Shown here piece after piece: positions 37,921 to 45,929 of a stretch of DNA of 64,000 bases. The notes below the pieces were generated by a model, which worked only from the letters and a program-made list of their open reading frames with translations, made no database searches and had not been told where the DNA came from. The position numbers were made by a program, and so were the translations under genes. The first letter of the stretch is position 1. Every line of letters begins with the position of its first letter. Source of the stretch: a virus. Where the stretch lies: the IMG/VR virus record IMGVR_UViG_3300050014_001197, positions 1 through 64,000 of that record, one strand, 5' to 3'.

Positions 37921-38105
37921 AAACCAAGAATTATAACCAAAAAAGAAAGGATCTTAAAAAATTTAAAAAGGTTGCCGAAGAAAGAGGATTCGAGGATTCT
38001 AGGCATAGAAAAGCATTTAAGGAGGATATAAAAAAATCTTTTCGTTCTCTTAAGAGAAGTGAAAATCAAATCATTGAAAAACAAATAGAAGAAGAATTAG
38101 AATAA
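37917..38105 (+). CDS. hypothetical basic protein
   Basis: 62-aa ORF. Confidence 0.3.
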   Translation: MKTKNYNQKRKDLKKFKKVAEERGFEDSRHRKAFKEDIKKSFRSLKRSENQIIEKQIEEELE

Positions 38106-38107
38106 AC

Positions 38108-38183
38108 GCGTCGGTATCGCGCCTCGCTACGAACGAGGAGAAGCGTAATTGGACACATGAGGGTTCGAATCCCTTTCGACGTT
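38108..38183 (+). tRNA. atypical tRNA-like element with anticodon arm ACG (Arg-like), no normal D-arm, 20-nt variable region
   Basis: Acceptor gcgtcgg/tcgacgt (GU at both ends). Perfect anticodon arm cctcg-cuACGaa-cgagg. Canonical T-arm gaggg-ttcgaat-ccctt. Only 7 nt lie between the acceptor and the anticodon stem. Confidence 0.3.
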
Positions 38184-38184
38184 C

Positions 38185-38290
38185 TAAATGTGGAGCACTT
38201 GAAAAAACTGCAATGCGGCTGCGACCCGCACATTAATCTCAACCCGTATTCGAGGCAGGAGTGCCTTGCGGAAGTCCCACATTTTTAAAA
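38185..38290 (+). ncRNA. structured ORF-free element closed by atgtgg/ccacat and followed by TTTTT
   Basis: Inner hairpins tgcgg-ctgcgac-ccgca and aggca-ggag-tgcct. No T-loop consensus, so it is not a tRNA. Confidence 0.25.
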
Positions 38291-38292
38291 TT

Positions 38293-38365
38293 GCGATAGT
38301 AGCTCAGTTGGTAGAGTAGGATTTTGCCAAGATTCAGGTCGTGGGTTCGAGTCCCATCTATCGCT
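38293..38365 (+). tRNA. tRNA-Gly (GCC)
   Basis: Acceptor gcgatag/ctatcgc, D-arm gctc-agttggta-gagt, anticodon loop uuGCCaa, T-arm gtggg-ttcgagt-cccat. Confidence 0.65.
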
Positions 38366-38383
38366 CTAAGAGAGGAAAATTAA

Positions 38384-38456
38384 GCAGGTGGCGCACCACG
38401 GCGAGTGTTCCAGCCTTCCAAGCTGGCTATAGTGGGTTCGACTCCCATCATCTGCT
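38384..38456 (+). tRNA. tRNA-Gly (UCC)
   Basis: Acceptor gcaggtg/catctgc, D-arm gcac-cacggcga-gtgt, anticodon arm ccagc-cuUCCaa-gctgg, T-arm gtggg-ttcgact-cccat. Confidence 0.65.
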
Positions 38457-38492
38457 CTAAAAATAGCAGAATGGATAGCATAAAAATGAATA

Positions 38493-38500
38493 TATAAATA
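38493..38500 (+). promoter_or_regulatory. late-like promoter box TATAAATA
   Basis: gaatatataaataaa, 10 nt upstream of ATG 38511. Confidence 0.3.
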
Positions 38501-38510
38501 AAATATATTC

Positions 38511-39257
38511 ATGAAAAGAAATAAAATAAAATGTGAAAAATGTGGAGGCCAAGTTTCTAGGAGTAATTATTTAAGACATCTAAATTGCTGTAATGGAATA
38601 GAAAAACAACAATTTGAAAAATTAGAAAAATGCCCATATTGTAATAAAGATATTTTTGATATTTCTGGGGGAAATCATATAAGATGGTGTGAAAAAAATC
38701 CCAATAGAGGATTAACACATACAGGAGGGGGATGGAATAAAGGTTTAAATAAAGATAATAGTAAAAGTATTTACAAACAAGCTGAATCCCTTAAAAAATG
38801 TTATAATGAAGGTAATTTTAAATTTAATTTTAGCCATCAAAAAAGAAATCCACTATCAGAAAAACACAAATTAAAAATTAAAAATTATCAATTAAATAAG
38901 GTACTTTCAGGAACTCATAAAGGATGGTCTCATATAAATTTAGATAAAAATCGAAGAAGTTATCCGGAAAAATGGTTTATAGAAAACATATTGGAAAAAT
39001 ATGATTTATTTTCAAAATATACAATTAAGGAAAAAATGTCTATTGGTAAATATTTTTTTGATTTTGCTTTTTTAGAACTTAACTTGGATTTAGAAATAGA
39101 TGGAAATCAGCATTATCTGGATAAAGGAATCAAACATGATATAAAAAGAGATGAATATTCAAAATCAAAAGGATGGAAAGTTTATAGAATAAGTTGGAAA
39201 AAAATTAAACAAAATAACTGGAACGAAATAAATGAATTTTTAAAAATGGTCCTGTAA
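38511..39257 (+). CDS. homing endonuclease-like protein (zinc-ribbon N-terminus + DUF559/Vsr-like PD-(D/E)xK C-terminus)
   Basis: CEKCGG ... CPYCNK zinc ribbons. C-terminal FDFAFLELNLDLEIDGNQHYLDKGIKHDIKRDEYSKSKGWKVYRISW resembles DUF559. The 3' end overlaps tRNA-Arg by 10 nt. Confidence 0.55.
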   Translation: MKRNKIKCEKCGGQVSRSNYLRHLNCCNGIEKQQFEKLEKCPYCNKDIFDISGGNHIRWCEKNPNRGLTHTGGGWNKGLNKDNSKSIYKQAESLKKCYNEGNFKFNFSHQKRNPLSEKHKLKIKNYQLNKVLSGTHKGWSHINLDKNRRSYPEKWFIENILEKYDLFSKYTIKEKMSIGKYFFDFAFLELNLDLEIDGNQHYLDKGIKHDIKRDEYSKSKGWKVYRISWKKIKQNNWNEINEFLKMVL

Positions 39258-39320
39258 CTCAGCGAATAGAGTGCATCGCTTCGGACGATGAGGTCGGGGG
39301 TTTGAATCCCTCCAGGATCA
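39248..39320 (+). tRNA. tRNA-Arg (UCG)
   Basis: Acceptor ggtcctg/caggatc, D-arm actc-agcgaata-gagt, anticodon arm catcg-cuUCGga-cgatg, T-arm ggggg-tttgaat-ccctc. Starts inside the last codons of the preceding CDS. Confidence 0.6.
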
Positions 39321-45057: not shown

Positions 45058-45834
45058 ATGATTAACTATTTTTACAAAATTACGAATTTAATAAATAACC
45101 ATTTTTATTATGGTGTTCATAAAACTAATAATTTGGAAGATGGTTATATGGGTTCGGGAAAACGATCTAATTATGCTATAAAAAAATACGGAAAGGAAAA
45201 TTTTAAAAAAGATATTATTCAGTTTTTTGATACTTATCAGGAAGCTTTAGATTTAGAATCGGAAATTGTAAATGAAGAATTAGTTAAAGATATTAATTGC
45301 TATAATTTGAGTTTACAAGGGAAAGGAACCTTGAGGCAAGGGCCAGCTTTAATTAATAAAGAAACTAGAGAATTAATAAAACCTAATAATATTGAAGAAT
45401 TTAATAAGTTATTTAACACAGGAAATTATTTTGGACATACAGTAAATCACAGTTCCTTTATAGACGAAAACGGAGAAAGATATTATTTAAATGTAAATGA
45501 TAATCAGATTAAAGAATTAAATTTACATGGATTAAATAAAGGAAGAATAAGTTGCAAAGATTTATCCGGAAAACTTTATTTTGTTGAACAAAATGATGAT
45601 AGATTTTTAAGAGGGGAATTGATAAAATTTGGAATGATGACGGATAAAAAACAATCAGAAGAATGCAAAAAGAAAATTGGTCAAAAAAATTCTATAGCGC
45701 AAAAAGGAAAATTAAATTCCCAATATGGAACAAGTTGGATAAATAAAGATGGTAAAAATAAAAAAATAATAAAAGAAGAATTAAAAAAATGGATTCAGGA
45801 AGGTTGGAATCCCGGATCTAAATTTAAAAAATAA
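45058..45834 (+). CDS. GIY-YIG homing endonuclease
   Basis: NYFYKITNLINNHFYYGVHK ... YMGSGKRSNYAIKKYGKENFKKDI. Sits between tRNA-Ser and the tRNA-like/tRNA-Thr genes. Confidence 0.8.
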   Translation: MINYFYKITNLINNHFYYGVHKTNNLEDGYMGSGKRSNYAIKKYGKENFKKDIIQFFDTYQEALDLESEIVNEELVKDINCYNLSLQGKGTLRQGPALINKETRELIKPNNIEEFNKLFNTGNYFGHTVNHSSFIDENGERYYLNVNDNQIKELNLHGLNKGRISCKDLSGKLYFVEQNDDRFLRGELIKFGMMTDKKQSEECKKKIGQKNSIAQKGKLNSQYGTSWINKDGKNKKIIKEELKKWIQEGWNPGSKFKK

Positions 45835-45836
45835 AT

Positions 45837-45922
45837 GGTGATTGTAACCGGTAATGGTGCCCGACCAGACTGTGGATCTGGAATCTGAAAAGACCATGTG
45901 GGTTCGAGCCCCACCTTTCACC
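45837..45922 (+). tRNA. irregular tRNA-like gene with anticodon arm GUG (His-like); possible pseudo-tRNA
   Basis: Perfect anticodon arm ccaga-cuGUGga-tctgg. Canonical T-arm gtggg-ttcgagc-cccac. Extra 5' G and C73 as in tRNA-His. The acceptor (gtgattg/ctttcac) has 2 U-U mismatches and there is a 16-nt unpaired variable region. Confidence 0.3.
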
Positions 45923-45929
45923 CTAAAAT

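Follow-up and report, generated by a model that had tools for sequence, protein, structure and literature searches.

The stretch of viral DNA analysed here (IMG/VR virus record IMGVR_UViG_3300050014_001197, positions 1 to 64,000; 64,000 nucleotides (nt), hereafter the window) contains at 38108–38183, on the plus strand, an element that probably encodes a working tRNA-Arg(ACG), one that could be charged and could decode, built on a non-cloverleaf scaffold common to many large phages. Comparison of the element with its relatives demonstrates that the anticodon, position 20, the discriminator and the encoding of CCA behave in this family as they do in working tRNAs. The first-pass annotation, made from the letters of the window, had pointed to an acceptor stem, a perfect anticodon arm for Arg-ACG and a canonical T-arm, all of which can be read directly in the sequence, and had counted 7 nt at the site of the D-arm (38115–38121) and 20 nt between the anticodon arm and the T-arm (38139–38158); both counts are exact. 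Its statement that there is no D-arm holds for a conventional D-arm; however, three of the 7 nt pair with three of the 20 nt, and the rest of the 20 nt holds D-loop-like sequence. The parts of the element are as follows.

38108–38183, plus strand: putative re-wired (non-cloverleaf) tRNA-Arg, anticodon ACG; 76 nt, no encoded CCA
38108–38114, plus strand: 5′ strand of the acceptor stem, GCGUCGG; pairs with 38176–38182, with G.U at both ends of the 7 pairs
38115–38117, plus strand: U8 A9 U linker; T8 and A9 invariant, T10 in at least 90% of 60 distinct members
38118–38120, plus strand: CGC, 5′ strand of the helix enclosing the anticodon arm; pairs with 38143–38145, and a single G precedes the anticodon arm
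38122–38138, plus strand: anticodon arm CCUCG / loop CUACGAA / CGAGG; anticodon ACG at 38129–38131; the stem covaries
38139–38142, plus strand: AGAA linker; NNGAAA in most members, the G and A positions being (nearly) invariant in the alignment
38143–38145, plus strand: GCG, 3′ strand of the enclosing helix; covariation
38146–38155, plus strand: D-loop-like segment, U + AAUUGGACA; equivalents of G18 G19 at 38151–38152 and of A20 at 38153
38156–38158, plus strand: CAU linker into the T stem; conserved in the family, which is weak evidence as the search patterns required CAU
38159–38175, plus strand: T-arm GAGGG / loop UUCGAAU / CCCUU; sequence, Rfam alignment and covariation
38176–38183, plus strand: 3′ strand of the acceptor stem, UCGACGU, with discriminator U38183; covariation

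Absence of a standard cloverleaf

The element keeps several features of the cloverleaf, namely the acceptor stem of 7 base pairs (bp), a UUCRANY T-loop and a 7 nt anticodon loop with U33 and R37; E. coli tRNA-Arg(ACG) has the same loop, CUACGAA. CCA is absent after U38183, as it is from the remaining tRNAs in the window. No D-arm hairpin lies between positions 9 and 26, where 7 nt are available, and the 20 nt region before the T-arm is neither a variable region of 4–5 nt nor a class II arm, having no hairpin of its own. Nor is the element a truncated tRNA of the mitochondrial type, given its 76 nt, its canonical UUCGAAU T loop and its conserved GG string. ARAGORN found 16 tRNAs in the window, and 38108–38183 was absent from these calls. 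The Rfam tRNA model RF00005, which has a gathering score of 29, gave the element 29.1 bits through an alignment that needs a deletion of the D-arm (15 model positions reduced to 4 nt) and an insertion of 17 nt in the variable region; the relatives scored 27.6–38.7 bits. Because ARAGORN was silent and the Rfam score is reached only via this deletion and insertion, we conclude that the region holds no standard cloverleaf in another register, a possibility that the first-pass annotation had raised and that was checked with these two programs. Besides tRNA, no Y RNA, transfer-messenger RNA or ribozyme family of Rfam matched the element (37950–38500 searched, E up to 10).

The region had also been called free of open reading frames (ORFs). 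Two mechanical ORFs do overlap it (38157–38288, plus strand, 43 aa; 38066–38242, minus strand, 58 aa); what stands of the claim is that a conserved reading frame is absent, since a homologue of the neighbouring element B (see below) carries indels of 4 nt and 1 nt.

A phage-borne family with a covarying structure

A blastn search of 50,697 phage genomes found stretches 75–81% identical to the element; they lie within tRNA clusters of phages that infect Microbacterium (A3Wally, Zooman) or Streptomyces (among them TunaTartare and Mildred21), and ARAGORN was silent on these relatives too. The 18-base pattern GGANNCATGNNGGTTCGAATCC, which occurs once in the window against an expectation of 0.03, was present at 85 loci of IMG/VR, and about 75 of these share the layout of the window element. 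Certain bases were prescribed in our search patterns (GGA or GG[CGT], CAUG and some of the T-arm), a bias of which copies found by model alone are free. A covariance model built from 60 distinct family members (R1) scored the window copy at 83.2 bits (E 1.5e-19) and the ordinary tRNAs of the window at no more than 29.4 bits; it added further copies, some of them in tandem, with three in locus L076 and three in L036. The family spans more than 200 IMG/VR phage contigs and some 80 cultured phages of Streptomyces and Microbacterium. Of the records of cultured phages, 48 have Arg-type copies and 80 have copies of the Ile type, nearly all without an annotated feature. A pattern scan of one genome for each of 185,579 bacterial and archaeal species returned 23 matches, of which two were true members, both on short contigs of metagenome-assembled genomes; the family is therefore essentially phage-borne.

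The lone annotated member that we have seen (L003, 1495–1570; gene 169 of Streptomyces phage Mildred21) is labelled tRNA-Phe(gaa). This is probably a mis-assignment, because its loop, CUUCGAA, gives UCG (Arg) in the register of the family. Another member, a re-wired Arg(ACG) of 91 nt (L037, 1330–1420, plus strand), is lengthened by about 14 nt inserted after the GGA string and before the T stem, which suggests that this linker tolerates extra sequence.

In the alignment of the 60 members, 95.9% of cells are paired, compared with 64% in shuffles and 36–50% when partners are slid, and compensatory changes occur at 17 of the 20 pairs, a covariation that none of 500 shuffles reached. The acceptor stem has compensatory changes at all seven of its pairs, with 98% of cells paired. 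The 3 bp helix enclosing the anticodon arm is paired in 100% of cells and covaries at each of its three pairs, with CG, AU, GC and UA all found at every position; it is also present, as CGC/GCG, in the minimum free energy fold of the window element, and it is 99.5% paired in a separate Ile-type set of 67 members, aligned by fitting to the model. Every helix is preserved by compensatory change in more than 140 distinct sequences, and on this covariation we regard the secondary structure, including the enclosing helix, as established.

We infer from this structure that the core of the tRNA has been re-wired by a move of segment 10–21 (the D loop and the D-stem strand 5′ of it) from before to after the anticodon arm. 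The AAUUGGACA string with its preceding U would read like D-arm positions 13–21 (the equivalents of A14, G18 G19, A20 and A21), and the strand that follows U8 A9 U would act as D-stem 22–25, running straight into the anticodon stem. In the window element, the CGC strand would thus occupy the spatial place of D-stem 22–25, and the GCG strand would be the equivalent of D-stem 10–12. The acceptor/T branch of the family is canonical (7 + 5 bp), and short linkers, AGAA/NNGAAA and CAU, join the transposed pieces.

A degenerate pseudo-tRNA, or a tRNA-like processing signal punctuating a polycistronic transcript, might be suspected from the borderline Rfam score together with the silence of ARAGORN, and from the location of the element right after an endonuclease ORF in actinophages. 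We consider this extremely unlikely, as so many distinct sequences preserve all helices by compensatory change and the class of the anticodon goes together with the base at position 20 and with the discriminator (see below); a processing signal, moreover, does not require an anticodon at all.

Coupling of the anticodon to position 20

In bacteria the Arg identity set consists of A20, C35, U/G36 and A/G73, with A20 as the main element, and the Ile identity set of U20, A35, U36 and A73 plus others (PMC9976931, Table 1). The D-loop-like string of the family reads UAA-YY-GG-N, where N is A if the anticodon is of the Arg class, and the window element fits this pattern (UAAUUGGA, 38146–38153, anticodon ACG); its Arg identity bases are C38130 and G38131, plus A38153 after GG. 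Members that were selected with A after GG have Arg anticodons only (ACG 27, UCU 25, UCG 11, CCU 7, GCG 1). Of the 79 Arg-type members, 78 have A after GG and one reads GGGA; among them are 18 copies found by the model alone, every one of them with A.

A second scan, in which C, G or U was allowed after GG, yielded at least 120 IMG/VR loci. Among the matches listed, 104 distinct sequences were recovered, all with U after GG; the anticodons of these U-type members are UAU, GAU and CAU plus one UAC, the discriminator is A, and the count of U after GG in Ile-type members is 63 of 63. The base equivalent to position 20 therefore switches with the anticodon as the synthetases would require, and the scaffold exists in two identities, for which the step from UCU to UAU is a single base change. 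The same switch between A in Arg and U in Ile members backs our assignment of A38153 as the likely equivalent of position 20.

The Ile-type sister group comprises L280–L399 (the at least 120 IMG/VR loci), 77 Streptomyces phages and one crAss-like phage, and is unannotated in the GenBank phages. A lone re-wired Val member with anticodon UAC and U20 (L402, 10637–10713, minus strand) differs from UAU by one mutation. Scans for other anticodon classes (G or U at 35; CA, CC, AA or AC at 35–36; NAG not scanned) gave chance matches and this one Val(UAC).

Complementarity to canonical tRNAs and encoding of CCA

Of the 37 re-wired Arg copies in loci that also have canonical tRNA-Arg genes, only 1 shares its anticodon with one of these, against a permutation mean of 9.1 (P ~1e-4); the sole collision is in Microbacterium phage A3Wally, in which a canonical and a re-wired Arg(ACG) lie side by side. 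Where one locus has several re-wired copies, their anticodons are never repeated. For example, L077 combines canonical CCG, CCU, GCG, ACG and UCG with a re-wired UCU, the relative L255 combines a canonical tRNA-Arg(ACG) with a re-wired Arg(UCU), and the window has its re-wired ACG together with the following gene.

39248–39320, plus strand: canonical tRNA-Arg(UCG), complementary isoacceptor (ARAGORN, Rfam)

The codons CGU, CGC and CGA account for 139 of the 496 Arg codons (28%) in the long ORFs of the window. The 3′ end of the re-wired copies likewise follows the habit of the locus: CCA is encoded in 20 of 20 copies where at least 70% of the neighbouring canonical tRNAs carry it, and missing from 53 of 55 where at most 30% do.

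These patterns bear on the possibility that the element is a non-decoding decoy, which would mimic tRNA-Arg and soak up a host nuclease, toxin or modification enzyme while its altered core barred it from translation. The unusual core would be in keeping with such a role, phage tRNA clusters are widely discussed in reviews as counter-defence, and A3Wally retains a canonical Arg(ACG) beside its re-wired copy. A decoy, however, has no reason to avoid the anticodons of the canonical tRNA-Arg genes of the same phage, nor to occur in tandem copies tiling all Arg anticodons, as in L076 and L036; L255 has a canonical tRNA of the same anticodon instead; and the acceptor/T branch, the discriminator and the CCA habit are preserved as in working tRNAs. 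We hold this explanation to be unlikely.

The element might, alternatively, be charged and yet act off the ribosome, as an Arg or Ile donor for a reaction of the aminoacyl-transferase type, with a core that blocks use by EF-Tu or the ribosome. In favour of this, the synthetase identity elements are preserved, and dedicated non-ribosomal bacterial tRNAs do exist, for example the cell-wall tRNA-Gly of Staphylococcus. The diversity at the wobble position and the complementarity to the canonical set point instead to codon reading, the EF-Tu-binding acceptor/T branch is fully canonical, and no transferase gene was seen adjoining the element in the window; such a donor role is, in our judgement, very unlikely.

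The first-pass annotation had offered a pseudo-tRNA, a decoy or a Y-RNA-like module as candidate identities. All three are disfavoured by a conserved family that behaves like working tRNAs in anticodon, position 20, discriminator, CCA and complementarity, and we disfavour a pseudogene, a processing signal or a pure decoy because none would be likely to pass the position-20, complementarity and CCA tests together.

Proposed function and points that weigh against it

Our working model for the tRNA-Arg(ACG) is that it would be transcribed along with the tRNA cluster, cut out of the cluster transcript by host tRNA-processing enzymes, which would trim both ends, and given its CCA by the host. It would then fold into an L-shape with GG contacting the T loop and be charged by the host arginyl-tRNA synthetase (ArgRS) through A20, C35 and G36; with A34 deaminated to inosine, it would read CGU, CGC and CGA for the phage. 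Escape from tRNA-directed host nucleases, which is an attractive idea, and a frozen accident are candidate reasons for the re-wiring. A bolder proposal, which we regard as possible and put forward tentatively, is that the scaffold represents a native second tRNA topology in bacterial translation, in which the 5′ half of the D-arm is transposed 3′ of the anticodon arm, with charging by host ArgRS or isoleucyl-tRNA synthetase and decoding on the host ribosome. Such a topology might be kept as being invisible to host tRNA-directed nucleases or toxins, or to tRNA-depleting enzymes of the phage itself.

Several points weigh against the reading of the element as a working tRNA on a new scaffold. The conservation of the bases that were fixed in the search patterns is partly by construction, and the L-shape is deduced solely from conserved bases. 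A decoy that is recognized by ArgRS or by an anticodon nuclease could likewise retain A20 and an Arg anticodon, and the A3Wally pair shows that the scaffold does not always fill an empty slot. A description of the family was not found in the full-text open-access literature, and its novelty is limited to that extent. Finally, the folding energy is no better than that of shuffled sequences (z = +0.50 for the element; −1.25 to −1.43 for element B). Being insignificant, it was left out as evidence, and the question of chance was settled by comparing sequences, that is, by the score of the element under the family model and by the compensatory changes in both elements.

Element B and its tRNA-Gly partner

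The first-pass annotation had further noted a second structured element, with a closing stem and a T run and no T-loop, followed by two normal tRNA-Gly genes. These are all seen in the sequence, at the following positions.

38186–38286, plus strand: element B, a structured RNA of about 100 nt, directly 5′ of tRNA-Gly(GCC); relatives and three compensatory pairs
38293–38365, plus strand: canonical tRNA-Gly(GCC), the conserved downstream partner of B (ARAGORN, Rfam); order kept in L036 and L255
38384–38456: canonical tRNA-Gly(UCC) (ARAGORN, Rfam)

In the closing helix of B, AAAUGUGG (38186–38193) pairs with CCACAUUU (38277–38284), after which the T run follows. The inner helices are 38214–38218/38226–38230 and 38251–38257/38262–38268, the latter with a GGAG loop. 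The three compensatory pairs are between the window copy and L036, and B scores 118 bits with its own model (R2), a value that is circular for B itself. Two IMG/VR scans, a metagenome scan (the source of L255 and L256) and a model search gave as relatives L255 and L036/L082/L256 only, three distinct. The pattern GCCTTGCGGAA(N)GTCCC matched 50 IMG/VR loci, of which L036 and L082 are real and the others coincidences in coding sequence, and the pattern CACATTAA..TTCG..GGAG gave noise only among the matches listed. No further B was found by R2 over 852 kb of phage tRNA-cluster loci, no blastn similarity to B in the 50,697 phage genomes, and no matching Rfam family even at E up to 10.

In every case (window, L036 and L255) B directly precedes tRNA-Gly(GCC). 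In L255 it directly follows the stop codon of an ORF, with no re-wired tRNA adjoining; B is therefore independent of the re-wired tRNA, and the view of the two elements as one unit finds no support. Our best guess is that B is a small RNA, probably co-transcribed with the cluster and released by the same tRNA processing.

It has been documented that ribozymes abut phage tRNAs, theta ribozymes of the hepatitis delta virus (HDV)-like kind flanking tRNAs in gut phages (PMC10879173). In a similar manner, B could generate the ends of the tRNAs beside it, as a self-cleaving or a processing RNA, or else be a regulatory leader of tRNA-Gly(GCC); it always abuts this gene, and its conserved GCGGAA(A)GUCC resembles the CR-I motif of RNase P. 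Such roles are distinctly unlikely: in the closing helix the partner of the 5′ strand is the extreme 3′ end, unlike the HDV-like order P1-P2-P3-P1'-P4-P2' (compared by hand), Rfam gave no match to a ribozyme or to RNase P, and three distinct sequences constrain the structure only weakly.

More specific identities for B were tried and rejected. An HDV-like theta ribozyme is a nested double pseudoknot that is cleaved at its own 5′ end, next to the 3′ end of a tRNA; B has the wrong helix order for this and in L255 follows an ORF rather than a tRNA, and no HDV-type Rfam match was obtained. As an RNase P RNA, B has the CR-I-like GGAA(A)GUCC only, with no CR-V to form P4, and the window gave no RNase P match at E up to 0.01. 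As a tRNA, it offers 5 bp hairpins with the 7 nt loops CUGCGAC and AGCCUAC, the second of which is without U33.

Neighbouring genes and other RNAs

A promoter-like sigma-70 site (TTGAAA-18 nt-TAGAAT, 38074–38103, plus strand; 10 of 12 matches) ends 5 nt before the re-wired tRNA; it lies inside the end of an upstream 62-aa ORF and is weak evidence for transcription with the cluster. Endonuclease-type ORFs of the GIY-YIG and DUF559 (Vsr-like) kinds lie among the tRNA genes of the window (33253–33882, 45058–45834 and 38511–39257, plus strand), and in actinophages the re-wired tRNA is located directly after HNH or endonuclease VII genes. The endonuclease ORFs of the tRNA region are probably homing endonucleases that shuffle tRNA cassettes. 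A 597-aa ORF of the window had no match in the 50,697 phage genomes (tblastn).

Two other tRNAs of the window are unusual. The first, a tRNA-His(GUG) of 86 nt (45838–45923, plus strand), was called by ARAGORN and is absent from the Rfam tRNA matches; it has an 8 bp acceptor stem with two U.U pairs and a 17 nt variable region with a UCU-GAAA-AGA hairpin. Long tRNA-His genes of the same kind are present in L046 and L039, and the window gene recalls the phage (8/4) tRNA-His (PMC5389517). The second, at 3442–3517 (plus strand), has the anticodon CUA and is an amber suppressor (ARAGORN 'Pyl'; Rfam 57.8 bits). TAG is the rarest stop in the 58 long plus-strand ORFs of the window (TAG 4, TAA 42, TGA 12), and the phage may recode TAG.

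An unannotated stretch of 221 nt in A3Wally (MZ150783.1, ~93852–94072; L001, 1746–1966) matches bacterial RNase P RNA class A with 72 bits (E ~5e-22), against a gathering score of 100. It lies between tRNA-Arg(CCG) and tRNA-Arg(CCU), with the re-wired tRNA-Arg about 170 nt upstream, and has perfect CR-I (GAGGAAAGUCCGGGC) and CR-V (ACAGAACCCGGCUUAC) motifs and a specificity domain that is almost wholly deleted. This RNA may be a phage-encoded minimal RNase P RNA, of which a limited text search found no report. Unannotated T-arm-like motifs also follow the re-wired tRNA-Arg in A3Wally (L001, 1580–1672, ending ...GACCUUCCGCCA) and in TunaTartare (L002, 1570–1850), and these stretches may be further unrecognized tRNA-like RNAs.

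Implications and comparison with known systems

As the family is almost never annotated, phage tRNA counts and analyses of codon supply miss these genes. If our interpretation is true, bacterial cells already run a natural non-cloverleaf tRNA scaffold; the non-canonical tRNA engineered into E. coli required directed evolution. The scaffold would then be in use in hundreds of phages of diverse hosts, among them phages of Streptomyces and Microbacterium, crAss-like gut phages and the AT-rich phage of the window. It would provide a natural experiment on what synthetases, EF-Tu, RNase P, the CCA enzyme and the ribosome need of a tRNA core, and a ready-made, possibly orthogonal scaffold for genetic-code engineering. 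Change of tRNA shape as a means of phage escape from tRNA-targeting immunity would also become testable.

Among non-coding RNAs, tRNA-like decoys and bacterial Y RNAs (YrlA) share with the element a T-arm and an acceptor-like stem. In Y RNAs a Ro-binding stem replaces the anticodon arm, and they adjoin rsr; the element differs in having a full anticodon arm, with an anticodon class that goes together with the synthetase identity bases, and it gave no match to a Y-RNA model. For element B, the stable 'species 1/2' RNAs of the T4 tRNA cluster offer a parallel. Theta ribozymes (PMC10879173) resemble B in being small structured RNAs between phage tRNA genes, likely co-transcribed and released by processing; they differ in that B falls outside the HDV-like pseudoknot order and matched no ribozyme model.

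With canonical tRNA-Arg (RF00005) the element shares the 7 bp acceptor stem, the 5 bp T stem with UUCGAAU, the 5 bp anticodon stem with CUACGAA, U8 and GG-A, and the family shares location in tRNA clusters and a restriction to Arg anticodons. Canonical tRNA-Arg has a hairpin D-arm between position 9 and the anticodon arm, whereas the family has a D-stem-like helix that encloses the anticodon arm and a D-loop-like string between the anticodon and T arms; the discriminator, moreover, is often U in the subgroup of the window. Mitochondrial tRNAs that lack a D-arm (mammalian mt-tRNA-Ser(AGY) and those of nematodes; PMC7609411) have a similarly short connector at the D-arm site and serve translation. 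They are, however, about 55–65 nt long, have lost the contact of G18 G19 with the T loop and need adapted organellar factors, whereas the phage family is of full length, with a D-loop-like GG string and a canonical T loop, and belongs to phages of bacteria; the same review of non-canonical tRNAs makes no mention of phages (PMC7609411). The (8/4) and (9/3) allo-tRNAs and the phage (8/4) tRNA-Ser and tRNA-His (Mukai et al., 2017; PMC5389517) are, like our family, non-standard tRNAs of phage clusters and metagenomes that were overlooked by finders, and they demonstrate that tRNAs of altered geometry are tolerated in bacterial translation (PMC5389517). In those tRNAs the split of the 12 bp between acceptor and T stems is altered and the D-arm is normal, whereas in the phage family the acceptor and T stems are standard and the connectivity of the core is altered. 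This connectivity is a match for none of the three, that is, canonical tRNA-Arg, the D-arm-less mitochondrial tRNAs and the (8/4) and (9/3) tRNAs.

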